A model generated the notes under the pieces. That model was not told where the DNA came from. It was given only the letters and a program-made list of their open reading frames with translations, and did not search any database. Source: an uncultured Acidobacteriota bacterium (GTDB lineage: Bacteria > Acidobacteriota > Thermoanaerobaculia > UBA5066 > Gp7-AA6). From it: 64,000 nucleotides of DNA. Shown here one piece after another: positions 12,455 through 47,767 of this stretch. How positions within the stretch are numbered: position 1 is the stretch's first letter; the number at the start of each line of letters is the position of its first letter. The DNA is taken from assembly GCA_963810205.1 (NCBI GenBank), contig CAWEMP010000018.1, forward strand, positions 169,001 through 233,000. The letters run 5' to 3'. Made by a program: the position numbers and the translations under genes.

Positions 12455-13792
12455 ATGAAGGAGATGGCGCGGACGCGTTTGGCCGCCGTGCTGCTGAGCG
12501 CCTGGGCCGGGATCGCATTGGCCGCCGACCCGGCCGTCACGATCCTCAAGGCCGCCCGACTGATCGATGGGCGCGGCGGCCGGCCGATCGCGCCCGCGAT
12601 GGTGCGGGTCGAAGGCGAGCGAATCGCCGAGGTCGGGCCCGCCCTCGCGATTCCGGCCGGCGCCCGCGTCATCGACCTCGGCGACGCGACGCTCCTGCCC
12701 GGCCTCATCGACCTCCACACGCACCTGACCGACAAGTTCGGCGTCCACTGGGAACAGGCCCTGACGACGACGACCCCCGGCGAGGCCGCGCTGTGGGGCG
12801 CGAACAACGCGCGCGACACCCTCATGGCCGGCTTCACCACGTGCCGCGACATGGGGCCGACCTGGCCCTACGTGGACGTCGCCCTGCGCAACGCGATCGA
12901 CGCGGGCGCGGTGCCCGGGCCGCGCCTCTTCGTGGCCGGCAACTACGTCTCCTCGACCGGCGGGGCCGGCGACGCGCGGCAGTTCTCGATCTACGTGGAC
13001 GTCCCGATCGTCCGGAACCTGGCCGACGGGCCGGAGGAAGTGACGAAGGCCGTGCGCACGAACTTCAAGAACGGCGCGGACTTCATCAAGATCCTCGCAA
13101 CCGGCGCGATCCTCTCGAAGGGCATCGCGCCGGACGCGCAGCAGTACTCGGACCTCGAGATCGCGGCGGCGGTCGAGGAGGCGAACCGCTGGGGACGGCA
13201 GGTCGCGGCCCACGCGCACGGGGCGAAGGGCATCAAGAGCGCGATCCGCGCAGGCGTGCGCACGATCGACCACGGCTCGTATCTCGACGACGAGGCGGTC
13301 GCGCTGCTGAAGGCGGGCGCGCGGAGGACGTTCTACGTTCCGACGCTGTACACGAGCGAGGTGATTCTCGAGAACGAGGGCGCGACGATACCGGAATCCG
13401 AGGTCCAGAGAATGCGCCAGATCCGCGACATCAAGGACGCGGCCTTCCGGCGGGCACTGGCCGCGGGCCTGCCGATCGGATTCGCCACCGACTCGGGCGT
13501 GATCCCTCACGGCAGGAACGCCCGAGAGTTCGCTCTCCGCACCGGTCTCGGCGAGACGCCACTCTCGGCGATCGTCTCCGCGACGAGCCTGAACGCGGAG
13601 ATCATGGGCTGGTCGGACCGCGTGGGGACCGTCGAGAAGGGGAAGCTCGCAGACCTCGTTGCGGTGTCCGGCAATCCCCTCTCGGACGTCACCGAGCTCG
13701 AGCGCGTCCGGTTCGTGATGAAAGGCGGCGTCGTCTGGCGGGACGATCTGTCAGGCGCGTGCCCGGATGCCGGCAGGGGAGCCGGACCTTGA
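12455..13792 (+). CDS. secreted metal-dependent amidohydrolase (PF01979-type)
   Basis: ATG 12455 follows GAGGAG and opens the signal peptide MKEMARTRLAAVLLSAWAGIALA. LPGLIDLHTHL (HxH), AAHAHGAKGI, TIDHGSYL and FATDSGV follow the order of the amidohydrolase metal ligands. Intact. Confidence 0.8.
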   Translation: MKEMARTRLAAVLLSAWAGIALAADPAVTILKAARLIDGRGGRPIAPAMVRVEGERIAEVGPALAIPAGARVIDLGDATLLPGLIDLHTHLTDKFGVHWEQALTTTTPGEAALWGANNARDTLMAGFTTCRDMGPTWPYVDVALRNAIDAGAVPGPRLFVAGNYVSSTGGAGDARQFSIYVDVPIVRNLADGPEEVTKAVRTNFKNGADFIKILATGAILSKGIAPDAQQYSDLEIAAAVEEANRWGRQVAAHAHGAKGIKSAIRAGVRTIDHGSYLDDEAVALLKAGARRTFYVPTLYTSEVILENEGATIPESEVQRMRQIRDIKDAAFRRALAAGLPIGFATDSGVIPHGRNAREFALRTGLGETPLSAIVSATSLNAEIMGWSDRVGTVEKGKLADLVAVSGNPLSDVTELERVRFVMKGGVVWRDDLSGACPDAGRGAGP

Positions 13793-13861
13793 GCCTCTCC
13801 GCCGGTACGAAGCTCGGTCCCTACGAGATCCTGGCTCCGATCGGCGCGGGCGGGATGGGGG
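13789..13861 (+). pseudogene. orphan 5' stub of a kinase gene (first 24 codons, [24 protein letters not shown])
   Basis: The TTG at 13789 overlaps the amidohydrolase stop (CTTGA). The coding sequence stops being kinase-like exactly where repeat R2 begins. Nucleotides 13804-13862 are identical to 14061-14119 of K3. Confidence 0.7.
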
Positions 13862-14015
13862 ACCGTCGCTTCGGTGACTCGGAGGTCTGGCTTCGCCACC
13901 GGCGCGCGGCTCGCAGACGGCGCTCGACCGCGCGCCTGACCTCCTCGCGGCGGTCCGCTCCCGCGGCGCGAACCTCCTCCCTCCCTTCGGTCGGGAGACT
14001 ATTCGCGCCGCGAAC
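13862..14015 (+). repeat. kinase-leader structured repeat, copy R2
   Basis: P1 GGAGGTC/GACCTCC, hairpin 1 GGC-TTC-GCC, hairpin 2 GGCGCGCGG/CCGCGCGCC, and the invariant 3' domain. It lies 30 nt upstream of the K3 ATG. Confidence 0.85.
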
Positions 14016-14045
14016 AACTGGGAGATTGTCTTTGAGAGGTCTCCG

Positions 14046-29825: not shown

Positions 29826-29904
29826 ATGACGCTCGCCGCCGGCTCGAGGCTCGGTCCCTACGAGATCCTCGCGCCGATCGGAGCGGGCGGGATGGGGGAG
29901 GTTT
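29826..29904 (+). pseudogene. orphan 5' stub of a kinase gene ([26 protein letters not shown]..)
   Basis: ATG 29826 is followed by 26 kinase-like codons that end exactly at the ACCGTCGCT start of repeat R4. The frame then runs into the repeat and terminates there. Confidence 0.65.
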
Positions 29905-30064
29905 ACCGTCGCTCTCGCTCGCTCGCGGACCTGGCCCTTCGGCACCGGCGTTCGGCTCGTCCGGATGCGGACTCGCCGTCCGCCTGATCCGCTCGCGTCG
30001 CTCCCGCTCCCGCGGCGCGAACCTCCTCCCTCCCTCCGGTCGGGAGACTATTCGCGCCGCGGAC
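29905..30064 (+). repeat. kinase-leader structured repeat, copy R4 (most diverged)
   Basis: P1 GGACC/GATCC (one mismatch), hairpin 1 GCC-CTTC-GGC, and hairpin 2 GGCGTTCGG/CCGTCCGCC (two mismatches) with inner GTCCG-GATG-CGGAC. The 3' domain has a loop variant (TCCGGTC) and ends GGAC. It lies 39 nt upstream of the K7 GTG. Confidence 0.8.
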
Positions 30065-30103
30065 GTCAGGGAGGGTGCCGCTGAGGGCAGGGGAGAAGGC
30101 GCC

Positions 30104-32745
30104 GTGACGCTCGCCGCCGGCACGAAGCTGGGCCCGTACGAGATCCTCGTCGCCGCTCGGCGCGGGCGGGATGGGCGAGGTGTACCGGGCGCGGGACGCG
30201 CAAGCTCAACCGCGACGTCGCGATCAAGGTGCTGCCGGCGGCGTTCGCGGAGGACGCGGAGCGGCTGGCGCGGTTCCAGCGGGAGGCGCAGGTCGCTGGC
30301 GTCGCTGAATCACCCGCACATCGCCGCGATCTACGGACTCGGAGAACGTCGGGCAGCGTCGAGGCGCTCGTGCTGGAGCTCGTCGAGGGCGAGACGCTCG
30401 CGGAGCGGATCGCGAGCGGGCCGATTCCTGTCGACGAGGCCCTGGCGATCGCGCGCCAGATCGCCGACGCGCTCGAGGCGGCGCACGAGAAGGGGATCGT
30501 GCACCGGGACCTGAAGCCGGCCAACGTCAAGGTCACGCCGGAGGGCAAGGTCAAGGTCCTCGACTTCGGCCTGGCGAAGGCGTTGACGGGCGACGCGTCG
30601 TCGCCGGACCAGACGCACTCGCCGACGCTGACGGCCGCGGCGACGCAGGCCGGGGTCGTCATCGGGACGGCGGCGTACATGTCGCCGGAGCAGGCGCGAG
30701 GGCAAGGCCGGTCGACAAGCGCGCCGACATCTGGGCCTTCGGCGCGGTGCTCTACGAGATGCTCTCGGGCAGCAAGGCGTTCGACGGCGAGACGGTCTCG
30801 GACACGCTGGCCGCGATGCTGCGCGCCGACTCGGACTGGTCGCGTCTCCCGCCGGAGCACGCCGCCCGCGGTCCGCGAGCGCTTCTGCGCCACTGCCTCG
30901 ACCGCGAGCGAAGTACCGGCTCGCGCGACATCGCCGACGCGCCGATCGCTTTCGGACGGCTCGCGGGAGCGTCGTTCCCGGCGCGCTCGCCGCCGCCCCG
31001 GGTCCGCCGAATTCCCGCCGGGCTCCTGTGGGGTATTGCGGGGCTTCTCGCCGGAGCGATCACGGCGCCTGCTCTCGAGCGGGCGTCTTTCCCGGCACGC
31101 CTCCCCGGGCCAGCCGGTTCGTTTCGAAGTCGCCGCGCCGCCGGACCACCGCGTCGTGGGGACCGTCGCGCTCGCGCGAGACGGCAGCCATCGTCGCCTT
31201 CACGGCACGAGCGCCGGACGGCGTCGACGCGCTCTGGATTCGTGCGCTCGAGATCAAGCGGCGAGGTTGCAGGGAACCGAAGGCGCGCACCTTCCCTTCT
31301 GGTCGCCCGACGGCCGTTCCGTGGGGTATGTCGCCAGCGGAGCTCTCAAAGGCATCGCGACTCGGGTGGCCGCGCCTCGGAGCGACGCTGGCCTCTGTGA
31401 CGACGACGTTCGCGGTGCGTGCTGGGACGAAGCCGACCGGTCGTCTTCGCGCCGGCATTACCGGGCCTCATGCAGGTTTCGGCCTCGGGAGGGATGGTCA
31501 AGCCGTGCTCACGCTCTGGACAAGCCGGAGCGGGACTTCCATCCGCGGCCCGCTTCCCGGACGGGCGGCTTTCCTCTACTTCGCCACGGGTCCACCGGAC
31601 AGGGCCCGGCGAGATCATCGTCGGGGAGGTCGGGTCGGGCAAGGTCAAGCACGTCGTGCAGTCGAGCTCGATCGCGGCTACGCGAACCCGGGATACCTCT
31701 TATTCGTCCGCGGCCAGCTCCCTTCGGCGCAGCGCGTCCGACGCCGACGGCTCGGGCGTTCCCGTTCACGCGACGCCTCTCGGCGACGATCGTCGCCGAA
31801 TTCGTCGACGAGGGGCCTGCGGGCCATCTCCGCTTCTCTCGAGGGAACGATCTGCTGGCGCGCTCCAGCGAGCTCGACGAGCCAGCCGGTGGTGCTCGAT
31901 CGCCAGGGACGCGAGATCGGAAGGCTCGCGGAGGCCGGGACCTGGTACTACCCTCATCTCTCTCCGGACGGTCAGCGGCTGGCCGCCGCGGAGTGGCCGA
32001 CACCACCGTCGGGACATCTGGACGATCGACATCGCTCGGAACGTGGCGACGCGCATGACTCTGGACCCGGGGGACGACCAGAGCCCGATCTGGTCGCCCG
32101 AGGGTACGCGGATCGTCTTCAACTCGGACCGCAAGGGCGCCTCGGGCAACCTTTACGAAATGCGGGCCGACAGCCGGGCAGCGAAGAGCTCGTTCTCGCG
32201 ACCGAAGACGCGAAGACCGCCGAATCGTGGGCGCCGGACGGCCGCTCGCTGATCTTCCAGCTCAGTACGCCTCGAGACCGGGCGGACCTCTGGCTGCTTC
32301 CTCTCGAGGGAGATCGAGAAGCCAGCGCCGTTTCTGGCGACAACCTTCTCCGAGCGGAATGCCCGCTTCTCTCCCGACGGCCGGTGGGTGGCATACACAT
32401 CCGATGTCTCGGGCGCCTTCGAGGTCTACGTCCGGCCGTTCCCGAATCCGGCGGAACGTGGAGAGTCTCGAACCGCGGCGACCAGACTCCTGCCTGGAGA
32501 GGCGACGGCCGCGAGATCTACTTCTCGCTCCCGATGACATGCTGATGGCCGCGGCTGTAAAGGGCACCGCGCCCTTTCAGACCGAAGCCCCGGCGCCTCT
32601 CTTCAAGCTCGCGGTCTCCGATGGCGGTCGATCCTCAGTACGACGTATTCCCGGACGGCAAGCGCTTTCTCGTCAACGCAGCGAGATCTCGTCGGAGGAG
32701 GAGCCGACCAACGTGCTCGGTGCAACTGGGCCGCGGCCCTCAAGA
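30104..32745 (+). pseudogene. Ser/Thr protein kinase with PD40/TolB-like beta-propeller ectodomain (K7, subfamily II), many frameshifts; 3' end approximate
   Basis: GTG 30104 ([15 protein letters not shown]..). Pieces in all three frames give [84 protein letters not shown] and a NWAAALKK-type C-terminus near 32740. No clean stop lies before K8. Confidence 0.8.
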
Positions 32746-32760
32746 AGACCGCGAGGGCCA

Positions 32761-35451
32761 ATGACGCTCGCGGCCGGGACGAAGCTCGGGCCTTACGAGA
32801 TCCTGGCGCCGATCGGCGCGGGCGGGATGGGCGAGGTCTACAAGGCGCGAGACGAGCGTCTCGAGCGCACGGTCGCGGTCAAGGTCCTGCCGCCGCATCT
32901 CTCGTCGAGCCCGGAGCTGCGGCAGCGATTCGAGCGCGAGGCGAAGACCATCTCGCAGATCTCGCACCCGCACATCTGCGCGCTCTACGACGTCAACCGC
33001 GAGGGCGAGACCGAGTACCTCGTCATGGAGTACCTCGAGGGCGAGACGCTGGCGGATCGCCTGAGCAAGGGCCCGCTGCCGGCCGAGCAGCTCCTGCGGT
33101 CCGGGATCGAGATCGCCGACGCGCTCGACAAGGCGCACCGGCAGGGCATCGTGCACCGGGACCTGAAGCCCGGCAACGTGATGCTGACGAAATCCGGGGT
33201 CAAGCTGCTCGACTTCGGCCTGGCGAAGTTCCAGGCGGCGGGCCGCGACGTTTCGTCCGGCGTCTCGCGCCTCGCGACGGAGATGCAGGCGAGCCAGCCG
33301 CTGACCGAGCGCGGCACCGTGCTCGGCACCTTCCAGTACATGGCGCCCGAGCAGCTCGAGGGCAAGGACGCCGACGCCCGCAGCGACCTCTTCGCCTTCG
33401 GCGCCGTGCTCTACGAGATGGCGACGGGCAAGAAGGCGTTCTCCGGCTCGAGCCAGGCCTCGCTCATCGGGGCGATCCTGCGCGACGACCCGCCGGCGAT
33501 CTCGGAGATCTCGCCGATGATCCCGCCGGCCTTGAACCGCGTCGTCAAGACCTGCCTCGCCAAGGACCCGGAGGACCGCTTCCAGACGGCACACGACGCG
33601 AAGCTCCAGCTCCAGTGGATCGCCGAGGGCGGCTCGCAGGCGGGGCTGCCCGCGCCGGTCGTCGCGCGCCGCAAGAACCGGGAGAAGCTCGCCTGGGCCG
33701 TCGCGGCCGCGGCGATCGTCGCGGCCGGACTCGCGACGTTCGGTTACCTTCGCCGGGCGCCGCGCGCGGCGACGCGCGTCGGCGCGTTCGTGCTGCCGGC
33801 CGAGAAGTCCGAGCTCCAGTTGTCCGAGGCGGGCTGCGGCTCGCTCACGGTGTCGCCGGACGGCCGCCTCATCACGTTCTCTGCGAAGGATGCCGACGGC
33901 AAGACCCTGCTGTGGCTCCGGCCCACGGGCGAGCTCGCGGCCAGGCCGATTCCCGGGACGCATGGGGCGACCTTTCCGTTCTGGTCGCCCGACAGCCGGT
34001 TTCTCGCGTTCTTCGCCGACGGCAAGCTCCAGAAGGTGGACATCTCCGGCGCGCCGCCGCTTCCGGTGTGCGACGCGCCGGCGGGCCGCAGCGGCGCCTG
34101 GAATCGGGATGGCGTCATTCTCTTCTCGCCGGACACGACGACGGGCCTCGTTCGGGTCCCCGCGGCGGGGGGCACGCCGAAGCCGGCGACGACGCTCGAT
34201 GGCGCTCGCGTCGAGACGACGCACCGGTGGGCGACGTTTCTGCCGGATGGGCGCCACTTCCTCTACATGGCGGGCGCGCATTCGGCCGGCACGAAGAGCG
34301 ACTCGAACGCGATCTACCTCGGGGCCCTCGACTCGAACGAGAAGACCCTCCTCCTGCAGGCCCGCTCGAACGTCGTCTATGCCTCGGGCTACCTGCTCTA
34401 CGTGCGCGAGCGGATCCTGCTCGCGCAGCGCTTCGACCCGGGCGCCCGGCGTCTCGTCGGGGAAGCGGTCCCGGTGGCCGAGGGCGTGCAGTACGACCCG
34501 GCGTTTTTCCGGGGCGTGTTCGCGGCCTCGGAGGACGGCGTCCTCGTGTACGCCCTCGGCGCGGCAGGCTCGGCCGCGACCCGGCTCACGTGGATGGATC
34601 GCGCGGGAAAGCCGCTGGGCGAGCCCCTGGGGGAGCCCGCGGAGTACCAGGGTCTTTCGCTTTCGGCGGACGGAAAGCGCATCGCCGCCTGGATCAACGA
34701 TCCGACGACGGGGGCCGGATCGATCTGGCTCGTCGACGGCCGCGGGGTCCGCACCCGTTTCACGTTCGGCGACCTCTCGGAGTCGCCCGTGTGGTCGCGG
34801 GACGGGAGCCGCATCGCGTTCCAGAGGCTGGACAAGAAGGGGGTCGATCAGATTCGCGTGAAGGCCTTGAGCGGCTCCGGCCAGGAAGAGCTCGTGTTTC
34901 AAGGAAAGCCGGCGACCCCGCTCGACTGGTCTCCGGACGGCGCCTACCTCGCGGTGCAGGTGCACCAGCGCAGCGGCGTCACGACGGGTGAAGACATCTG
35001 GATGGTCCCGCTCTCCGGCGACCGGAAGCCGTTCCCGTTCCTCGCGGGAGAGTTCAACGAGACCGGCGCCTCCTTCTCGCCGGACGGCAAGTGGGTGAGT
35101 TTCTCCTCGAACGAGTCGGGGCGGGACGAGCTCTACGTCGTTCCGTTTCCGGGGCCGGGCGGCAAGTACCAGATCTCCGCGGGCGGCTCCCAGGGAGGAG
35201 CCTTCTTCAAGGGCGGCCGGGAGATCCTCTACGGAACTCCGGATAACGACGTGGTTTCCGTGGACGTCAAGGCCAGCCCGTCGGGGCTCGAGGTCGGCCC
35301 GCCGAAGAAGCTCTTCAAGGTCCCTTCGGCTACTGCCGTCGCGATCACGCCCGACGGCGAGAGATTCCTCCTCGCCGTGCTCCCGCAGGGGACCGCGGCG
35401 CCGCGCGTGGCGCTCGTGACCAACTGGACGGCGGGGCTCGAGAAGAAGTAA
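32761..35451 (+). CDS. Ser/Thr protein kinase with PD40/TolB-like beta-propeller ectodomain (K8, subfamily I)
   Basis: ATG 32761 ([31 protein letters not shown]) and intact to 35451. The TM segment is [21 protein letters not shown], followed by PD40 repeats and the C-terminus NWTAGLEKK. Confidence 0.92.
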
Positions 35452-35465
35452 AGACGGCTCAGCAA

Positions 35466-35538
35466 ATGACGCTCGCGGCCGGAACGAAGCTCGGCCCCTA
35501 CGAGATCCTGTCGCCGCTGGGCGCGGGCGGGATGGGGG
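35466..35538 (+). pseudogene. orphan 5' stub of a kinase gene ([24 protein letters not shown])
   Basis: ATG 35466 lies 14 nt after the K8 stop. Its 24 kinase codons end at GGGATGGGGG/ACCGTCGCT, the same junction as at 13861/13862. It differs from the K9 5' end at about nine positions and resembles K11/K12-type 5' ends ([11 protein letters not shown]). Confidence 0.7.
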
Positions 35539-35692
35539 ACCGTCGCTCCGCTGACTCGGAGGTCTGGCTTCGCCACCGGCGCGCGGCTCGCGGACGGCGC
35601 TCGACCGCACGCCTGACCTCCTCGCTGCGCTTCGCTCCCGCGGCGCGAACCTCCTCCCTCCCTTCGGTCGGGAGACTATTCGCGCCGCGAAC
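35539..35692 (+). repeat. kinase-leader structured repeat, copy R5
   Basis: Near-identical to R2. P1 is GGAGGTC/GACCTCC and hairpin 2 is GGCGCGCGG/CCGCACGCC, with the invariant 3' domain. It lies 54 nt upstream of the K9 ATG. Confidence 0.85.
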
Positions 35693-35746
35693 GATAGAGA
35701 GAGTGCCATGAAATGAAATCGCCGGGCTTGTTGGAGGTCGGCTGAG

Positions 35747-38434
35747 ATGACGCTCGCGGCAGGAACCAGGCTCGGGCCCTACGAGATCCTGGCGCCGCTC
35801 GGTGCGGGCGGCATGGGAGAGGTGTACCGGGCGCGGGACACGCGGCTCGAGCGGACGGTGGCGGTGAAGGTGCTGCCGGAGCGCCTGGCGGAGGATGACG
35901 ACGCGCTGGCGCGCTTCGGGCGGGAGGCGAAGGCGGTCGCGGCGCTGTCGCACCCGAACATCCTCGCGATCCACGACTTCGGGCACGAGGGCAGCGGTCG
36001 CCTATGCCGTGTCCGAGCTTCTCGAGGGCGAGACGCTGCGCGAGGCCCTCGCGTCGGGGCCGCTGTCTTCCCGCAAGGCGACGGAGTACGGCGTGCAGAT
36101 CGCGCTGGGCCTCGCCGCGGCCCACGAGAAGGGGATCGTCCATCGGGACCTGAAGCCCGACAACATCTTCATCACGCGCGACGAGCGGCTCAAGATCCTC
36201 GACTTCGGCCTCGCCAAGCCCGGCGCTGGCTTCGCCAGACGCCCGCGACGAGACACAGTCGCCGACCGTCTCGGGCTACACGGAGCCCGGCAAGGTGATG
36301 GGCACGGTCGGCTACATGTCGCCGGAGCAGGTCCGGGGCATCGCGGTCGATCACCGGTCCGACATCTTTTCGTTCGGCGCCGTGCTCTACGAGATGCTGA
36401 CGGGAAGCCGGGCCTTTGCAGCGGGAGACCGCGGCCGAGACGATGACGGCGATCCTCAAGGAGGAGCCCCGCGAGCCGACGTCGGTCGGCTGCGGATGCA
36501 TCGGCGCTCGTCCCGGTCCTTCGGCACTGCCTGGAGAAGAAGCCCGAGAAGCGCTTCCAGTCGGCGCGGGACCTCGCCTTCGCCCTGGAGACGGCCTCCG
36601 GGACGACGGGCTCCGCCGCCGTGGCGGTCGCTCCGGCCGCGCCGCGCTCCGCCCCGGTGTGGAAGTGGCTCGGCGTCGCGGCACTCGCTGCGGCCGCGGC
36701 GCTCGCCGGCTACTTCGTTCGCGGCCGGTCGGGCGACGGCTCCCGCGCCGGACTGGAGCGAGGCGACGATCACGCCGCTGACGACGGATCCGGGCTACGA
36801 AGGGGAGCCGACGTTCTCTCCCGACGGACAGACGATCGCCTACGTCTCCGACCGCGACGGGAACTTCGAGATCTATCTGCAGCAGATCGCGGGCGGGCCC
36901 GCGCTCAATCTGACGAACAACCGGGCGGCGGACATCCAGCCGGCCATTTCTCCCGACGGCCGCGAGATCGCGTTCGTCTCGAATCGCTCGAGCAGCTCGG
37001 ACATCATTCACGCGGCTCCCGGCCTGCCGCTCGTCGGAGGCGACATCTGGGTGATGCCCGCCCTCGGGGGTCCGGCCCGCCGGATCGTCGAGAACGGAGA
37101 TTGCCCGTCCTGGACGCCGGACGGAGCGAGCCTCCTCTACGTTCACGGCACTTTCCGAAATACGCGGATCGCGCGTCGTTCCCGCGGCGGGAGGGGAGAG
37201 CCGCGACCTGCCGATCGAAGAGCCCTATCGTGGCCCGGTATTTCTGTTCCCGAGCCTCTCGGAGGACGGCCGGTGGCTGCTCTTCCAGAACGGCAATCAG
37301 GTCGAGGTCGTCCCCGCGAGGAGGCGGGAAAGCGAAGGTCCTCGCTCGCGGCGAGGCGCCGGCATGGGGGCCCGGATCGACGAGCATCCTGTACACGAAC
37401 GACACGCCCGGCAAGGGCCGCACGCTCTGGCGGGCGCCCTTCTCGCTCGACGCGGGGAGAGCTTTCGGGACGGCCCGAGCCGCTCACCTTCGGGCGCGGC
37501 GCCGACCTCGGGGCGAAGGCCTCGCGCGACGGAACGGCGGTCGCGTTCTCCGCGGTGGACGAGAGTCTCAACCTCGAGGAGCTTCCGTTCGATGCGGAGG
37601 CCGGTCGCGCGACGGGACCGGTCCGGGAGCTGACCTCCGGAAACAACCGCGTGGGATTCTTCGACCCCGCCCCCGACGGGAAAGCGGTCGTCTTCGCGGC
37701 GGACCGCGGCGCCCGGGCGCATCTCTGGCGCATCGATCCGCCGGCGCTTCCGGTCGAGCTCACGCGCGATCCGAACTACTCGGAGACGTACCCCGAGTGG
37801 TCGCTCGACGGCAGCGAGATCGCGTTTTCTCGATCGGTCGGCGGAGCCGGCGAAGGCGCCCAGGCGCTCTGGATCATGAAGGCGGACGGCACCAACCCGC
37901 GGCGGGTCACCGACTTCTCAGGGCAGATGGTCTGGTTGTCGGATCGGAAGGCGCATCATCCAGCGCGGCGAAAACCTGATGCGGCTCGATCTCGTCTCGG
38001 GCGCCACCGAGCCCGTTGCGCGGGAGCCAGAAGCCGGACGCTTCTTTCCGTCGATCGCGCCGGTCAGTGGCTCGCGTACCAGAGCAGCGAGGGCGGCGCG
38101 ATGAACATCGTGGCCATCCCGGTCGCCGGCGGAACCCCGCGGCTCGGTCGCGACTGGGCCGTACGAGGCCTACCACCCGTTCTTCTCGCCGTCCGGCCGC
38201 TGGCTGTATTTCCAGCCGGCGCACAAGAACCTCTACCGCGTGCCCGGCCCGGCGCAGGGCTGGGCGACCGCCGTTCCGCAGAAGGTGACAGACTTCTCCG
38301 GGCTCGACCTCTACATCGAAAATCCCAGGATCTCGCGCGACGGCTCGAAGCTCTTCTATACGCGAGGGCGTAGGACGGGGGACATCTTCATCCTCCACTT
38401 CGGAACGACGCGGAGACGAAGTCGCCACCGATGA
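35747..38434 (+). pseudogene. Ser/Thr protein kinase with TolB-like beta-propeller ectodomain (K9, subfamily III), many frameshifts
   Basis: ATG 35747 ([31 protein letters not shown]). Pieces give [40 protein letters not shown] and [13 protein letters not shown]. TolB-like repeats follow ([50 protein letters not shown]). They are spread over three frames (ORFs 35747.., 35895.., 36295..38373, 36621.., 38240..38434). Confidence 0.8.
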
Positions 38435-39536: not shown

Positions 39537-39696
39537 ACCGTCGCTGCGCTTCGCTCGGGGTCTGCGCCTGCGGCGCACCGGCGAGCGGCTCGCCGGGATG
39601 CCGGCTCGACCGCTCGCCTGATCCCTCGCGGCGCTTCGCTCCCGCGGCGCGAACCTCCTCCCTCCCTTCGGTCGGGAGACTATTCGCGCCGCGAAC
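39537..39696 (+). repeat. kinase-leader structured repeat, copy R6
   Basis: It begins directly after the upstream TGA. P1 is GGGGTC/GATCCC (contains a G-U pair), hairpin 1 is GCGCC-TGC-GGCGC and hairpin 2 is GGCGAGCGG/CCGCTCGCC, with the invariant 3' domain. It lies 35 nt upstream of the K10 GTG. Confidence 0.85.
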
Positions 39697-39731
39697 GAAA
39701 GCGAGATGGCCGCGGAAGTGGGTCGGCTGAC

Positions 39732-42409
39732 GTGAGTCTCGCGGCGGGAACGAGGCTCGGGCCCTTACGAGATCCTCTCGCCGATCGGCGCGGGAGGGAT
39801 GGGGGAGGTCTACCGGGCGCGGGACACGCGGCTGGAGCGGACGGTGGCGGTGAAGGTGCTGCCGTCGCACATGTCGGCCTCTCCGGAGATCCGGCAGCGG
39901 TTCGAGCGTGAGGCGAAGACGATCTCGCAGCTCTCGCATCCGCACATCTGCGCGCTCTACGACGTCGGGCGCGAGGGCGAGACCGAGTACCTGGTGATGG
40001 AGCTCCTCGAGGGCGAGACGCTGGCGGATCGGCTGGCGAAGGGCCCGCTGCCGCTCGAGCAGACGCTGCGGTACGGCGTGGAGATCGCCGACGCGCTGGA
40101 CAAGGCGCACCGGCAGGGGATCGTGCACCGGGACCTGAAGCCCGGCAACGTGATGCTGACGAAGTCGGGCGTGAAGCTGCTGGACTTCGGCCTGGCCAAG
40201 GCGATGGCGCCGGCGGCGACGCAGGCGAGCCTGACGTCGCTTCCGACGCAGCAGGGTCTGACGCAGGAAGGGACGATCCTCGGGACGTTCCAGTACATGG
40301 CGCCGGAGCAGCTCGAGGGCAAGGAAGCCGACGCGCGGACGGACATCTTCGCGCTTCGGCGCGGTGCTCTACGAGATGGCGACGGGGAAGAAGGCGTTCT
40401 CGGGCGGCGAGCCAGGCGTCGCTGATCACGGCGATCATGTCGAGCGAGCCCGCCGCCGATCTCGGCGGTGCAGCCGATGTCGCCGCCCGCGCTCGACCGC
40501 GTGGTGAAGAAGTGCCTCGCCAAGGACCCGGAGGATCGCTGGCAGAACGCCGCGGACCTCGGCAGCGAGCTCAAGTGGATCGGCGAATCCGGCTCGCAGG
40601 CGGGAGTTCCCGCGCCGATCGCCCTGCGCCGCCGCGTGCGCCTCGGGGCCACTGGCACGATCGCAGGCGTCATTCTCGGAGCCCTGGTCGGAGGGCTCGG
40701 GGTTCGGTGGTGGCTCTCCCGCGAGCCGGCGCGCGAGGCGCCGAAGCCAGCATGGCTCTCGATGCTTCTTCCCTCCGACGCGCCGCTGGCTTCCTACGGC
40801 GCGCAGACGCTCGCGTTCTCTCCCGACGGGACTCGCCTGGTCTACGCCGCGGAACACGGCGGAACGACACAGCTCTACCTGCGCTCCCTCGACCGTCTGG
40901 ACGCGATGCCCGTTCGGGACAGCGAGGGCGCGATGAGCGCCTTCTTCTCCCCCGACTCTCGGTGGCTCGGGTTCTTCGCCGGCACCAGGCTCATGAAGGT
41001 CCCGGTCGAAGGAGGAGTGCCGCAGACGCATCTGCGAAGCCGCCGAGGTCCGAGGGGCGAGCTGGGGCTCGGACGGCACCATCGTCTTTTCCTCGGGCAC
41101 CTCCGGATTGCTGCGCGTCTCCGCCTCGGGCGGGACATCTCGAATGCTCCTGCCCCGGATGCCAAGCACGGCGAGGTACCTTCTACTGGCCGGAAATCCT
41201 GCCGGGAGACGAGGCGGTTCTCTTCACGACTCGCTCGGCGAGGCGCAGGCCTCCGTCTTCTCCCTCGAAGACCGGCAAGCGCACGCGACCTGATCGAGGG
41301 AACGGAGCGCGCTATTCCCCCTCGGGCCATCTCGTCTTTGCGCGCGGCGGGTCGCTCTTCGCCGCGCCCTTCGATGTCAGGCGCCTGGAGCTGACCGGGC
41401 CCGCCGTCTCGGTCCTGGACGGCGTGATGATCCTCTCCCCGTTCAACAGCCCGTCTGTTCGGTCTTTCGGCCGTCGGAACTCTCGCCTACGCTCCCGGGT
41501 CTCCGCCCCGAGCACACCCTGGTCTGGGTCGACCGACAGGGCAAGGTCGAGCCGCTCCCTTCGAGCCCGCACCTACGAGGAGCCCCGCCTCTCGCCCGAC
41601 GGGAAGCGGCTCGCGGTCACGATCCGGGCGAGACAACCCGGACATCTGGGTCCTGGACATCTCTCGAGGCGCGTCGGCGCGGCTGACTTTCGACGCGGGG
41701 GAGGACGAGACGCCGTCTGGACTCCCGACGGCGCCAGAGGTCACCTACAGCGCCGACCGCGCGGGAAGCCCTCGCGCCATCTACTCGAAGTCCGTCCGAC
41801 GGCAGCGGCGCCGAAGAGCGGCTCCTGGCGAGCGCGACGCACCCTCACGTCAGCTCCTGGTCTCCGGACGGAAGGACGCTCGTCTACACCGAGTTCGATC
41901 CCGTCTTCTCCGGCGACATCTGGTCTGTTGACGTTCGGCGAGAAGGTCGCACCGGCGCCCCTGGCTGCGCACGCCCTTCAACGAGCGAGCGGCCGCGCTT
42001 CTCTCCTGACGGCCGCTGGCTCGCCTACGTCTCCAACGAGTCGGGACGCGACGAGATCTACGTGCAGCCCTTTCCCGGGCCGGGAGGCAAGTGGCAGATT
42101 TCGGTCTCCGGCGGAACCGAGCCGGTCTGGTCTCCCGACGGCAAGGAGATCTTCTATCGTGCCGGCGACAAGATGATGGTCGGTTCGCGTCGCGGCCGGC
42201 CAGACCTTCTCGGCGGAGACTCCGCAGTGCTGTTCGAGGGCCGCTTCGTGCCGACGCGCCGTGGCGACGCGGCCTACGACGTGTCGTCCCGATGACCGGC
42301 GATTCGTCATGATCCAGCGCGACGTGCAGTCGGTGGCCACCCACCTCAACGTGGTCCTGAATTTCTCGGAGGAGTTGAAGCGCCGCGCACCGGCGGAAGG
42401 CAGCCGTGA
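39732..42409 (+). pseudogene. Ser/Thr protein kinase with PD40/TolB-like beta-propeller ectodomain (K10, subfamily I), many frameshifts; 3' end approximate
   Basis: [12 protein letters not shown] is read from GTG 39732, and an extra T at about 39768 breaks the frame at once. ORF 39799..40425 gives an almost complete kinase domain. ORFs 40468.., 41xxx and 42062..42295 give the TM segment and PD40 repeats. The C-terminus VVLNFSEELKRR lies just before the K11 GTG. Confidence 0.8.
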
Positions 42410-45098
42410 CGCTCGCCGCCGGTCGCGCCTGGGCCCCTACGAGATCCTGTCGCCGCTCGGCGCCGGCGGGATGGGGGAGGTCTACAAGGCGCGGGACACG
42501 CGGCTCGAGCGGACGGTGGCGGTCAAGGTGCTGCCGTCGCACCTGTCGGCGTCCCCGGAAGTGCGCCAGCGCTTCGAGCGGGAGGCGAAGACGATCTCGC
42601 AGCTCTCGCATCCGCACATCTGCGCGCTCTACGACGTGGGGCGCGAGGGCGAGACCGAGTACCTCGTCATGGAGCTCCTCGAGGGCGAGACGCTGTCGGA
42701 GCGGCTGGCGAAGGGGGCGCTGCCGCTCGAGCAGACGCTGCGGTACGGCATGGAGATCGCCGACGCGCTGGACAAGGCGCACCGGCAGGGGATCGTGCAC
42801 CGGGACCTGAAGCCCGGCAACGTGATGCTGACGAAGTCGGGTGTGAAGCTGCTCGACTTCGGCCTGGCCAAGGCGATGGCGCCGGCGAGCGCGGCAGTCG
42901 AGCCTGACGTCGCTGCCGACGCAGCAGGGCCTGACGCAGGAAGGCACGATCCTCGGGACGTTCCAGTACATGGCGCCGGAGCAGCTCGAAGGCAAGGACG
43001 CCGACGCGCGGACGGACATCTTCGCGTTCGGGCGCGTGCTCTACGAGATGGCGACGGGAAAGAAGGCGTTCTCGGCGTCGAGCCAGGCGTCCTTGATCAC
43101 GGCGATCATGTCGAGCGAGCCGGCGCCGATCTCGTCCGTCCAGCCGATGTCGCCGCCGGCGCTCGACCGGGTCGTGAAGACCTGCCTCGCCAAGGATCCC
43201 GAGGACCGCTGGCAGATCGGCCGGCGACGTGGCCAAGGAGCTCAAGTGGATCGCCGAGGGCTCCGCGGCCGGTGTCGCGGCGCCGGTGGCGCTCGCCTCC
43301 CGCCGCCGGAATCGCGAGCGAATCGCCTGGGGCGCCTTCGGCGTCGCCGCACTGGCGGCGGCCGCCCTCGGGATCGGCCTCCTCCGCCGGCCGACGGCTC
43401 CGGCGCGCATCGTCCGGTTCGAGGTCGTCCCCACCGACGAGTCGCCCTACCGCGATGTGCAGGGCAGGATCTCGACATGGCGCCCGCCGTGTCTCCCGAT
43501 GGCCGACTCCTCGTGTTCAAGGCGGCGGACAGGGACCGAAAGACTGTCCCTGTGGGCTCGCCCTCTCGACGGTCTTCGGGCTCGGCCCCTGCCGGGAACC
43601 GAGGACGGTGATCTACCCCTTCTGGTCTCCGGACAGCCGTCTCCATCGGCTTCTTCGCCGACGGAAAGCTGAAGCGCATGGACGCTTCGGGAGGTCCCGT
43701 CCAGGTGCTCTGCGACGCGGAGGCGGGGCGCGGCGGGACATGGAGTCGTGACGGCGTCATCCTGTTCTCTCCCTCCGCCGGGAGTCCCATCCACCGCGTG
43801 ACCGCCTCCGGTGGCAAGCCCGAGCCGGTGCTCGCGTTCGACAGCGCCCACGGCGAGGACAGCCAGCGCTGGCCTCACTTTCTGCCCGACGGGCGGCACT
43901 TCCTGTACTTCTCCTATCTCGGCGCCAACCCGGAATCGAAGAACCAGAACGGCGGCATCCGCGTGGGCTCGCTCGACTCGAAGGAGGTGCGGGTCGTGGT
44001 GCCCGAGGCTTCGAATCCGGTCTACGCGGAGCCGGGCTACGTGCTCTTCGCGCGCGACGGAAACCTGCTCGCCCAGCGATTCGATGCGAAAGCGCTCCGA
44101 GCCTCGGGCGAGCCGATTCCGGTCGCTCAGGGCGTCGCCGTCATGGGCCCTCGGAAGTTCGGCTACTTTTCCGTCTCGGCGACCGGCGTTCTCGCTTACG
44201 GCCGGGCCGTGACCTTTCCCTCGAGGCTTCTCTGGTTCGACCGGCAGGGCCGGCAGGTGGGCGCGGTGGGGGAGGCCGGGGGCTACATCGGCCTGCGTCT
44301 CTCGTCCGACGGACGCAGGCTGGCCCTCGTGCGTCCGGGGAGCCGACGGCCAGAGCAGGAACGTCTGGATCTACGATCTCGTCCGGGGCTCGAAGGCACG
44401 GCTCGCGTCCGGAGGGCGACTCGAACGACGGTAGCGCCGTCTTGTCCCCCGATGGCTCCCGCATCGCCTTCAGCTCGATCCGCGGCGGCCCTCCGCGTCT
44501 CTTCGTGCGGTCGGTCGGCGGCGGGCCCGAGGAAGCCCTGCTCAAGACGAAGGACGCCGAGATCCCCGTCGATTGGTCCCCGGACGGACGCCTGATCGCG
44601 TACGTCGCCCCGGACGCGTCATCGAACTGGGACCTCTGGATCGTCCCGCTGCAAGGAGACCGCAAGCCTTTCCCCTTCGCCAAGACCAGCGCCATGGAAA
44701 CGCACGCCAAGTTTTCGCCGGACGGACGCTGGATCGCGACCGTCGCGGACGAAGCCGGAAAGGAAGAGGTCTACGTCGCGCCATTCCCGGGGCCCGGGGA
44801 GAGGGTGCAGGTCTCGACGGCCGGCGGCACGACTCCGCGCTGGCGAGGAGACGGGAAGGAGCTCTACTACCTTGCACCCGACCGAAAGCTGATGGCTGTC
44901 CCGATCCAGACCGGTGGGGCGCTCGAGGCCGGGATTCCGACCCCGCTCTTCGAGACGCGCGGGGACATCGGCGCCTCCGGATACGACGTGACGCGAGACG
45001 GGCAGCGGTTTCTCGTCATCACGCCCGTTCGCGAGGACGCCGCGCTGCCGATCGCGGTGGTCTTGAACTGGACTTCGGTCCTCGAGAAGGCGAAGTGA
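42406..45098 (+). pseudogene. Ser/Thr protein kinase with PD40/TolB-like beta-propeller ectodomain (K11, subfamily I), several frameshifts
   Basis: GTG 42406 (VTLAAG..) with one nt missing near 42424. The kinase domain in ORF 42261..43751 is about 95 percent identical in protein sequence to K10 and K12. Propeller pieces are in ORFs 42970.., 43229.., 43678..44595 and 44442..45098. The C-terminus is [10 protein letters not shown]. Confidence 0.82.
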
Positions 45099-47767
45099 CG
45101 CTGTCGGCCGGCTCGCGCCTCGGTCCCTACGAGATCCTGTCGCCTCTGGGCGCGGGCGGGATGGGGGAGGTCTACAAGGCGCGGGACACGCGGCTGGAGC
45201 GGACGGTGGCGGTGAAGGTGCTGCCGTCGCACATGTCGGCGTCTCCGGAAGTGCGCCAGCGGTTCGAGCGGGAGGCGAAGACGATTTCGCAGCTCTCGCA
45301 TCCTCACATCTGCGCGCTGTACGACGTGGGGCGCGAGGGCGAGACGCGAGTACCTGGTAATGGAGCTGCTCGAGGGCGAGACGCTGTCGGATCGTCTGGC
45401 GAAAGGGCCGCTGCCGCTCGAGCAGACGCTTGCGGTACGGACATCGAGATCGCGGACGCGCTGGACAAGGCGCACCGGCAGGGGATCGTGCACCGGGACC
45501 TGAAGCCCGGCAACGTGATGCTGACGAAGTCGGGCGTGAAGCTGCTCGACTTCGGGCTGGCGAAGGCGATGGCGCCGCGCGACGCCGCAGTCGAGCCTGA
45601 CGTCACTCCCGACGCAGCAGGGTCTGACGCAGGAAGGGACGATCCTCGGGACGTTCCAGTACATGGCGCCGGAGCAGCTCGAGGGCAAGGACGCCGACGG
45701 GCGGACGGACATCTTCGCGTTCGGCGCGGTCTTGTACGAGATGGCGACGGGGAGGAAGGCGTTCTCGGCGGCGAGCCAGGCGTCATTGATCACGGCGATC
45801 ATGTCGCTCGGACCCGCCGTCGATCTCGGCGGTGCAGCCGATGTCGCCGCCGGCACTCGACCGGGTCGTGAAGAAGTGCCTGGCCAAGGATCCGGAGGAC
45901 CGCTGGCAGAACGCGGCGGACCTCGGCAGCGAGCTGAAGTGGATCGGCGAGTCCGGCTCGCAGGCCGGGGTGGCCGCGCCGGCCGTTTCTCGCCGCAGGA
46001 ATCGCGAGCGGCTCGCGTGGGGTGTGGCGATCCTCGCGCTGCTCGCGGCCGGGGCCGCCGTGCTTCGCCACGGGCGCGGGCCGACGGCGTTTGCGATTCC
46101 GATGCGCTCCTCGATCATTCTGACGGACAAGTCGGCCTTGCGCAGCATCGCCCTTTCGCCAGACGGGACCAGGCTCGCCTTCGTCGCGAGGGATTCCGCC
46201 GGCAAGAACCTGCTCTGGATCCGGCCTCTGGATTCGTTGGCCGCGCAGCCCCTCCCGGGCACGGAGAATCCGTCGTTTCCGTTCTGGTCGCCCGACGGCC
46301 GCTCTTCTGGGTTTCTTCGCGGACGGAAAGCTCAAGAGGATCGACGCCTCGGGTGGGCCGCCCCAGACGCTCTGCGACGCGCCGGTTCCTCGCGGCGGGA
46401 GCTGGAGCCGGGAAGGCGTGATCCTCTTCTCGCCCGTCGTCGATGGTCCGCTCTATCGCGTCCCGGCGTCCGGCGGGCGCGCGACGGCCGTGACACGACT
46501 CGACAAGACACGGGGTGAGAGCTCTCATCGGTGGCCGTACTTCCTGCCCGACGGGCGTCACTTCCTCTACCTGGTCGCCAGCTTCGGGTCCGGGGCCGAG
46601 CGGGAGAAGATGGGGATCTACGTCCGGTCGCTCGACTCGAGCGAGGAAAGACTCATCGTGGCCGCAAAGTCGACCCTGGCGTACGCCGCGCCCGGGTTCG
46701 TGCTCTTCAGGCGCGAGCAGCATCTGGTCGCACAACCCTTCGACGCGCGGAAGCCTTCGAATCACGGGTGATCCCTTTCTGGTGGCCGAGAACATCCAGT
46801 ACTTTCCTCAGACGTTCGGGGCGCTCTTCTCCGTTTCCGCAAACGGCCTGCTGGTCTATCAGGCGGAATCGAGCTCGGTCCTTTCGCGGCTGCTCTGGCT
46901 GGATCGAAGCGGCCGGGAGGTCGGTTCCGTGGGCACGGAGGGTGACCTGGCCAATCCGCGCATTTCGCCCGACGGAACGAGGGTCGCCCTGGACATCACG
47001 GATCATCAGTCGGGAAACTTGGACGTCTGGATCTACCAATCTTCGGCGGCGTCGCGACGCGCTTCACGTCGGATCCGGCGCTCGACGCCGGGCCAATCTG
47101 GTCGCCCGACGGGCAGCGAATCGCTTTCATGTCTCTGCGCCGAGGCCATCCGGACATCTATCAGAGGAGCTCGAGCGGGGTCGGCGCGAGGAGCCGGTTC
47201 TCGCGTCGGACAGAACGAAGTACGTGACCGACTGGTCGCCGGATGGGCGGTTCATCCTGTATCGCGCCGTCGATGCGACGACGAATCTCGAGTTGTGGGC
47301 GCTGCCGGTCGGCGGCGGCGGCAAGCCCATCCCGTTTCTCAAGGCGTCGTTCGGCGTGAGCCAGGGCCAGTTCTCGCCGGACGGGCGATGGGTCGCGTAC
47401 GCGTCGAACGAGTCGGGGAAGTGGGAGATCGCCGTCGCGCCCTTTCCGGGACCGGGCGGCAACTGGAAGGTCTCCACGGCCGGAGGCACCGAGCCCCGAT
47501 GGCGGCGTGACGGAAAGGAGCTCTACTACCTCGCTCCCGACGGCAAACTGATGGCGGTGGACGTGAAGACCGGACCGACCTTCGAAGCGGGTGTCGCGAC
47601 GGCCGCTGTTCCCGGTCCGCCGCCGCGAGCCCGTGTCCGCCACCGACATGTTCAGCTACGACGTGTCCGCCGACGGCCAGCGCTTCCTGGTCAGTGACGG
47701 ATGCGGGTGAGGTGACCACGTCGCCCCTGACCGCCATCGTCAACTGGGCGCCGGGCTGAAGAAGTAG
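45095..47767 (+). pseudogene. Ser/Thr protein kinase with PD40/TolB-like beta-propeller ectodomain (K12, subfamily I), several frameshifts
   Basis: GTG 45095 overlaps the K11 stop (GTGA). The N-terminus is [31 protein letters not shown]. Pieces are in ORFs 44573.., 45663.., 45832.., 46418.. and 46531..47697. The C-terminus NWAPG(L)KK is broken by a last 1-nt gap before TAG 47765-47767. Confidence 0.82.

Follow-up and report, generated by a model that had tools for sequence, protein, structure and literature searches.

A truncated kinase start, a dispersed structured repeat and a second start in front of a Hanks-type kinase gene of an uncultured Acidobacteriota bacterium

The window analyzed in this study is a stretch of 64,000 nucleotides (nt) from an uncultured member of the Acidobacteriota (Thermoanaerobaculia), positions 169,001 to 233,000 of contig CAWEMP010000018.1 (assembly GCA_963810205.1), which carries twelve kinase genes (K1 to K12). 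The source genome (G000; other G-numbers denote genomes of relatives, and C-numbers denote contigs) comprises 4.1 Mb in 20 contigs and is 78.5% complete. The lineage is represented by soil metagenome bins, and its closest relatives are long-read soil metagenome-assembled genomes. In G000, Hanks kinases fused to a PD40 propeller form a family of about 90 paralogs, and the first ~130 nt of these genes are strongly conserved. Between K8 and K9, a short piece of a kinase start (the stub), a copy of a dispersed repeat (family R; the copy is R5), a leader and a second kinase start follow each other:

32761..35451 (+): K8, an intact Hanks kinase and PD40 propeller gene upstream of the stub (Pfam Pkinase and PD40)
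35449-35451: TAA stop codon of K8, separated from the stub ATG at 35466 by the native spacer of 14 nt
35466..35539 (+): stub, codons 1-24 of the native K9-lineage start, reaching the Gly-rich loop GAGGMG
35540..35692 (+): R5, the 153-nt core of a ~155-nt multi-hairpin dispersed repeat with head CCGTCGC and tail GCGCCGCGAAC
35693..35746 (+): R5 leader, 54 nt, with a conserved GAGAGTGCC box, a GGAGG Shine-Dalgarno-like tract and ...GGTCGGCTGAG abutting the ATG
35747..35830 (+): second (current) 5′ coding end of K9, diverged further from the orthologs than the stub
35747..38376 (+): K9 body, orthologous to intact genes in G007, G014, G023, G017 and G013, frame-broken as assembled

The ATG at 35466 starts a 24-residue reading that breaks off at ...GGGATGGGGG(A)/CCGTCGCT. 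The CCGTCGC head of R5 begins at 35540, and the A at 35539 can be assigned to the stub or to the repeat. The ATG of K9 (35747) lies 281 nt downstream of that of the stub; the two starts differ at exactly 9 of 73 positions, a number put at about nine in the initial annotation of this DNA. K8 (one reading frame of 896 amino acids, no insertions relative to G007), K2 and the G007 ortholog of K9 match PF00069 (E about 1e-49, for the Hanks-type Ser/Thr kinase) and PF07676 (for the C-terminal, TolB-like PD40 propeller). The stub corresponds to residues 1-24 of such a protein, ending in GAGGMG, and its parent gene belongs to the Hanks-type kinases.

The locus was found in relatives in an empty state. 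The syntenic contig of G007, the closest relative, is 91% identical to window positions 34700-35539, which cover K8, the spacer and the stub; the alignment stops at 35539 and resumes from 35747 at 90%, with the same 74 nt of G007 being used twice. K8 itself is 91% identical to G007:C21:219313-222093, and its alignment continues into the stub. The order in G007 is K8, TAA, a 13-nt spacer, the kinase start and the K9 body, with neither repeat nor duplication, and the sequence reads ...GAGAAGAAGTAAGACGGCTCAGCAAATGACGCTCGCC... uninterrupted into the K9 ortholog, an intact gene of 880 codons. No copy of R and no stub was detected in the entire syntenic 13-gene kinase array of G007, and R is likewise absent from the K9-orthologous loci of G013, G014, G017 and G023. 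The body of K9 is 86-90% identical to the five orthologs, compared with 58% to K8, and at least G023 and G017 have the same single-copy gene downstream as the K9 locus. Since the site is empty at a conserved locus in the relatives, G000 has a gain of 281 nt relative to G007, made up of R5, its leader and the second 5′ coding end.

The stub differs from the starts of the orthologs at 5 (G007), 10 (G023), 8 (G013), 10 (G014) and 10 (G017) of 73 positions, and the current start of K9 at 8, 10, 15, 17 and 14, respectively. In a comparison with paralog 5′ ends, a check proposed in the initial annotation, the best matches of the stub within G000 reached 66 of 73 positions, below the 68 of 73 shared with the K9 ortholog of G007; K9's own start shares 64, and K11 and K12 share 63. 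T46 and G54 of the stub, which give the residues ILSPLG, are the states of the G013, G014 and G017 orthologs. Six private changes are present in the 73 nt of the current K9 start, and the identity between K9 and G007 is 80% in nt 51-100 and ~90% beyond. Sharing both spacer and sequence with the orthologs, the stub is K9's own native start, left stranded, and the start now attached to K9 is the odd copy, probably imported together with R5 and the leader. It had been proposed in the initial annotation that a gene start was displaced by a cassette. A cassette-like block of 281 nt, absent from the orthologous sites of five relatives, is present in G000; the displaced start, however, is not of the subfamily I named there.

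The R family is represented by ~44 copies in the 4.1-Mb genome and by hundreds across the genus. Nearly all copies begin with (A/G)CCGTCGC and lie 0-3 nt from the stop codon of the upstream gene, whatever that gene is. An alignment of 41 copies gave a multi-hairpin consensus, with compensatory double changes at 10 of 33 pairs; R5 with its leader did not fold better than shuffled sequences as a single sequence (z = -0.65), so it is covariation that supports the structure. No matches were obtained in the whole window with the covariance models of Rfam 15 at gathering score. At 35 ordinary R copies no flanking duplications were found, the longest common flank string being 5-10 nt. Flanking direct repeats occur at kinase-linked R copies only, which indicates that the duplication requires homology between paralogs and does not come with R insertion as such.

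Assignment of R to known element types was also considered. R was rejected as a miniature inverted-repeat transposable element or insertion sequence derivative, having no target-site duplication and ends (CCGTCGC... and ...GCGCCGCGAAC) that are not mutually inverted. Two genes for a transposase associated with repetitive extragenic palindromes (REPs), the REP-associated tyrosine transposase (RAYT), were identified in G000 (NF047646, 84.7 and 79.2 bits). The repeats on either side of them are not R but different REPs, palindromes of the GGGGTCAGCCCTGAAGG and GGGGTCAGGCCTTGA types; a REP/RAYT (REPIN) system was therefore rejected for R, and no mobilizing enzyme for it was identified. The two RAYT genes (C13:71760-72083 and C11:1193456-1193776), each bracketed by its own inverted palindromes (GGGGTCAGCCCTGAAGGTCTGAC and GGGGTCAGGCCTTGATTCTGTAC types), make up a separate, classical REP/RAYT system within G000. 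In a tail-to-tail pair of R copies at C11:227529-227862, an R-type leader and ATGAGACTCGAG come after the first copy; ATGAGACTCGAG resembles 12 nt left over from a kinase start that the inverted second copy truncated.

A counterpart of the K9 locus lies elsewhere in the window:

13789..14045 (+): stub2 (13789-13862), R2 (13863-14015) and leader (14016-14045), followed by intact K2

The junction string of R5 recurs here at 13852-13869, and the initial annotation was correct in all that it states of the sequence, including the end of both stubs at the same nucleotide (13861/13862 at this locus) and the near identity of R5 and R2: identity is 92.8% over 167 ungapped nt and 95.4% over the gapped core. 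A 34-nt segment of R is found in R2 and R5 only within the window, with 0 expected in shuffled sequences. Between the K2 and K9 loci, identity is 38% in the upstream flank, 85% in the stub, 93% in R, 20% in the leader and 82% in the first 73 coding nt, and later kinase segments drop from 71% to 39%. A single large segmental duplication of the K2 locus, which would have undermined the initial annotation, is excluded by this profile: similarity is high in R only, and flanks and bodies are unrelated.

In a tree of the 41 G000 copies and those of relatives, R5, R2 and the G024 copy between K5 and K6 form one tight clade (93-95% identity), with C20:22655 and one G014 copy next to it. For the four other R copies of the window, identity to R5 is 73-82%. 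The G024 copy, which adjoins a stop codon as ordinary copies do (...AAGTGAG/CCGTCGC), is 94.8% identical to R5 and 92.9% to R2, and is followed by an R2-like leader and the K6 ortholog. The leaders of R1-R4, R6 and the G024 copy align with the R5 leader in the GGAGAGTGCC box, a purine tract and ...TGA(C/G) ahead of the start. The last 12 nt of the R5 leader together with the first 44 nt of K9 find their best match in the R6/K10 leader and start (87.5% over 56 nt). Judged from these alignments, R, the leader and the opening codons of the kinase act as a single cassette lineage, the parts of which would since have been reshuffled. As R2 and R5 are sisters sitting at the same nucleotide, a shared origin of their joint is more probable than its formation on two occasions.

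The joint is not confined to these two loci. With a pattern specific for it (an earlier, loose pattern gave mostly false positives), ~45 joint sites were found in 20 of 151 genomes of the order, and the reversed-pattern control gave 0 matches. Nine of ten sites retrieved are true units of stub, R, leader and full kinase. Ten sites, including both R2 and R5, have the joint GGNATGGGNGA/CCGTCGC (class 73). About thirty-five, including 29906 and C11:107900, have the joint GGNATGGGNGAGGTNTA/CCGTCGC, written also ...GAGGTNTA/CCGTCGC (class 79). Joints at nt 20 and nt 48 of the kinase are less frequent, and that of R6 lies directly after ATGA. Two further loci of the window belong to this set:

29826..30104 (+): third stub locus, joint 6 nt further in (GGTTTA/CCGTCGC, class 79), followed by R4, leader and K7
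39537..39732 (+): R6 and leader, inserted behind ATGA (where the upstream stop and the kinase start overlap) and ahead of the remaining K10 start

At the K10 site the empty state of G007 reads CCGCCATGA/GTCTCGC, and G000 reads CCGCCATGA/ACCGTCGC...GTGA/GTCTCGC. Opposite window position 39537, G007 (C21 225790-225850) retains a remnant only of the K10 ortholog, in which 18 nt of kinase start are fused to ~50 nt of a kinase C-terminal tail (...TNWTRELERKK and stop); K10-K12 have no counterpart there.

The class 79 joint coincides with the one ACCG that is conserved in the kinase start; this ACCG matches the head of R (microhomology of 4-5 nt) and points to a joint made at microhomology. In R2, G129 and G118:C7 the stub and the downstream start disagree within the first 15-25 nt only, and in R5 and others the mismatches are spread throughout, a pattern that variable crossover points on the homologous side would give. 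Tandem stub-R units were found in G020 and G057, and the ortholog pair C11:107986 and G024:C4 indicates later homogenization of stub and gene start; the flanking repeats thus keep recombining. The initial annotation had also considered that the junction itself was copied between loci, and this is borne out in part, R2 and R5 being sister copies at the same nucleotide and the junction class recurring in the family.

Several other truncated kinase starts were observed. On the minus strand at C11:448040-448700, three tandem kinase stubs with a period of ~183 nt precede a full kinase. The stubs (C11:448305-448672) are joined after ...GGCGCGGAGGCCCG to a short CGTC-headed palindrome (CGTCATTCCGAGCGGAGCGAGGAATCCC), a genuine CGTC-REP-like unit, and the leader has GGAGGAGCGCTC before TTG; the architecture is that of stub, R and kinase, with another repeat. 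At C2:71894-71986 (minus) a kinase stub passes at GGGCGGG into 30 nt that resemble a tRNA 3′ end (GGTTCGATCCCC...CCGCTCCA), in which ARAGORN detected no full tRNA. The 30-nt sequence recurs at C2:68809, 83262 and 87840, like the attachment-site repeats of integrated elements. At C14:123911-124480 a kinase start of 110 nt precedes a gene resembling ribbon-helix-helix antitoxins; next come 17 initial codons of a PIN/VapC-like gene, fused to a second kinase start from ~nt 15; duplicated kinase 5′ ends here bracket foreign DNA without any R.

Based on these comparisons, we consider it fairly probable that the K9 stub was stranded when a block of R, leader and start moved by recombination between paralogs, homologous on the gene side and joined at the Gly-loop codons and the R head on the other. 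In the G000 lineage, a 281-nt block carrying R5, its leader and a replacement of the first ~75-85 coding bases would have recombined into K9. Its right side would have been resolved by ordinary homologous recombination inside the 5′ coding sequence, which is highly conserved among the ~90 paralogs. Its left side would be the recurrent joint of the Gly-loop codons (GGGATGGGGGA) to the first repeat base (CCGTCGC). The donor would be a further locus with R, leader and kinase, from the cassette lineage to which R2 belongs, and the native start would not have been deleted but stranded upstream as a 24-codon stub. The sequence comparisons show that G000 has gained DNA over the empty orthologous sites, that the stub is native, that R2 and R5 are sisters, that the leaders are homologous and that the junction recurs across the family. 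From this we infer the recombination pathway, and a junction either copied from an existing stub locus or made afresh at microhomology. Seen as a whole, the locus is an instance of a recurrent, fairly ordinary rearrangement in the large kinase gene family of this bacterial family. A bolder extension, which we regard as rather unlikely, would make R, leader and first kinase codons a self-propagating cassette for 5′-end replacement. It would use the conserved kinase start as homing arm, with no nuclease of its own, and would have rewired the translation-initiation regions of dozens of Hanks kinases in several genera of the Thermoanaerobaculia, the stranded stubs then serving as gene-conversion partners for the active start.

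Several observations weigh against transfer of such a block. The excess divergence of the current K9 start is modest (8 versus 5 mismatches to G007) and could be explained by faster drift. The empty state of G007 could in principle have arisen by precise loss through recombination between the two direct repeats. The class 73 joint offers a microhomology of 1-2 nt only (A or GA), and the R copies at class 73 joints in G017 and G018 are of unrelated lineages, which suits joints formed de novo time and again as well as copied ones. A donor with the exact R5 leader and 5′ end did not turn up in 44 genomes of the genus, full-length matches reaching 81% at most; in these genomes and in all loci retrieved, a match to the R5 leader was obtained only with the end of the R6/K10 leader. 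The leaders of R2 and R5 differ by a 24-nt block and many substitutions; if R was copied between these loci, the leader was therefore not copied in the same event.

An alternative is that R is an active mobile element with a site preference for the Gly-loop codons (after ...GGGGGA or ...GTGTA), in which integration, for example by one-ended strand transfer with subsequent copying and template switching, produces the long duplication, and R2 and R5 are independent insertions from one master. The young subfamily of R2, R5 and C20:22655 (91-95% identity) is burst-like, the joint is always at the first base of R and at two main positions across many genomes and R lineages, and the placement of R 0-3 nt after stop codons nearly everywhere suggests some targeting. 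On the other hand, target duplications are missing at ordinary copies, R has no linked transposase, and the two RAYT genes have different REPs. Moreover, R is always followed by a homologous leader and a complete start, never by the interrupted remainder of a kinase, which indicates that R alone was not the unit that moved. We regard this explanation as unlikely.

Less probable still is a tandem duplication of K9, with insertion of R after the stop codon of the first copy and subsequent deletion from codon 25 to the stop. Internal deletions that leave kinase 5′ stubs are common (C13:158460, C14:111034 and the K10 remnant of G007), and the end of the R5 leader (GGTCGGCTGAG) is loosely like the native spacer between K8 and K9 (GACGGCTCAGCAA). 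However, this history needs three events with an exact right end at the first base of R, at the same two positions in dozens of loci; no tandem duplicate of K9 is present in any relative, and the leader is homologous to other R-linked kinase leaders and is not simply the native spacer.

The stub and R5 could also be viewed as a functional upstream open reading frame, or leader peptide, that controls K9 translation by ribosomes reading into R. The ATG of the stub is kept and opens a frame of 81 codons through R5. At three of the nine stub loci (R2, 14043-14048; C11:107986, at C11:107738; and G017) the frame ends in a TGA overlapping the kinase start codon (A/GTGA). At the other six it stops earlier, 35 nt before the K9 ATG in the case of R5. 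With regard to a cassette driving K9, as put in the initial annotation, neither a sigma-70 promoter nor an intrinsic terminator was detected in 35300-35900, and R5 and its leader contain no promoter-like site. Given the inconsistent stop positions, a conservation of the stub not beyond paralogy and the decayed appearance of K9 itself, such a role is very unlikely. As assembled, K9 contains 13 one- or two-base insertions relative to the intact G007 ortholog (K8 has none), and its protein matches (tblastn) are spread over all three frames. K1 (4558-7232), K7 (30105-32459), K9 and K10-K12 (39733-47580) are likewise multi-frame, and K2-K6 and K8 are clean; with six of twelve kinases broken, this bimodality would suit real pseudogenization better than random long-read error, although the relatives are long-read bins.

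An assembly artefact in a many-paralog region of a long-read metagenome bin is marginally less probable again. The long-read origin of the closest relatives, the incomplete genome in 20 contigs and the many single-base insertions of K9 would fit it, but the same architecture and joint strings occur in many independently assembled genomes, highly fragmented ones included, and the neighboring K8 is clean. Hardly credible is the origin given in the initial annotation, with the stub as the start of a displaced subfamily I (K11/K12-type) gene: its 11-residue signature is common to K11 and K12, and K9 now encodes a different one, but this signature hinges on one nucleotide and is carried by many paralogs and by the K9 orthologs of G013, G014 and G017, so that it is not a mark of K11/K12 origin but the K9 lineage's own polymorphic state, and the stub, closer to the G007 ortholog (68/73) than to the K9 start (64/73) or to K11/K12 (63/73), has the spacer and synteny of K9 and is orthologous to a G007 start that is continuous with the K9 body, as the empty site shows.

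Under paralog recombination, the K9 locus with its empty orthologous site is a case in which a structured repeat and a conserved gene start form a movable gene front that spreads in a paralog family and leaves scars. For annotation, 24-codon stubs of this kind are to be taken as relics and not as small genes, the working start codon being the one after the repeat. For evolutionary genomics, the locus makes recombination within a set of ~90 kinase paralogs per 4-Mb genome accessible to study, with no new molecular machine.

Among known systems, CGTC-tagged REPs have a CGTC head, one stem of 8-9 bp starting with A-T, a loop of 4-5 nt and a 3-nt tail (Di Nocera et al., 2013; PMC3733652). R resembles them in being intergenic and structured, with an unpaired, CGTC-containing head that often abuts stop codons, and no dedicated transposase has been found for the CGTC class (PMC3733652). 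It was not assigned to this class: the (C)CGTCGC head is present, but R is ~155 nt long and has several hairpins with 33 consensus pairs instead of the single 8-9 bp stem, and the RAYT genes of G000 are flanked by other REPs. REP2-type repeats of Neisseria supply a ribosome-binding site and a promoter directly upstream of genes. R with its leader similarly ends in a Shine-Dalgarno-like tract just before the start codon of many genes; R5 and its leader, in contrast, contain no promoter-like site, are tied to one paralog family and leave duplicated gene starts. Homology-facilitated illegitimate recombination, known from transformation of Acinetobacter and pneumococci, combines one homologous anchor with an illegitimate joint at short microhomology. 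K9-type loci would be similar in that a homologous right end is plausible (a conserved 5′ end with varying crossover points) and the left end has 1-5 nt of microhomology, 4-5 nt in class 79 (ACCG) and only 1-2 nt in class 73. They differ in that donor and recipient are paralogs of one genome lineage, the same joint occurs at many loci, and a link to transformation is not evident. The closest described analogue is the tandem paralog cluster lpl of Staphylococcus aureus, in which the recombination units consist of an intergenic region and the flanking gene ends (Tsuru and Kobayashi, 2008; PMC2568036). There, as would hold for the K9 locus, a stretch conserved in every paralog acts as the recombination site, and the intergenic region travels with the downstream 5′ end. 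Compared with the lpl unit, the K9 locus has its conserved stretch at the very 5′ end of the gene and includes a dispersed, structured repeat in the unit, and one illegitimate joint with a stranded stub takes the place of a clean swap.

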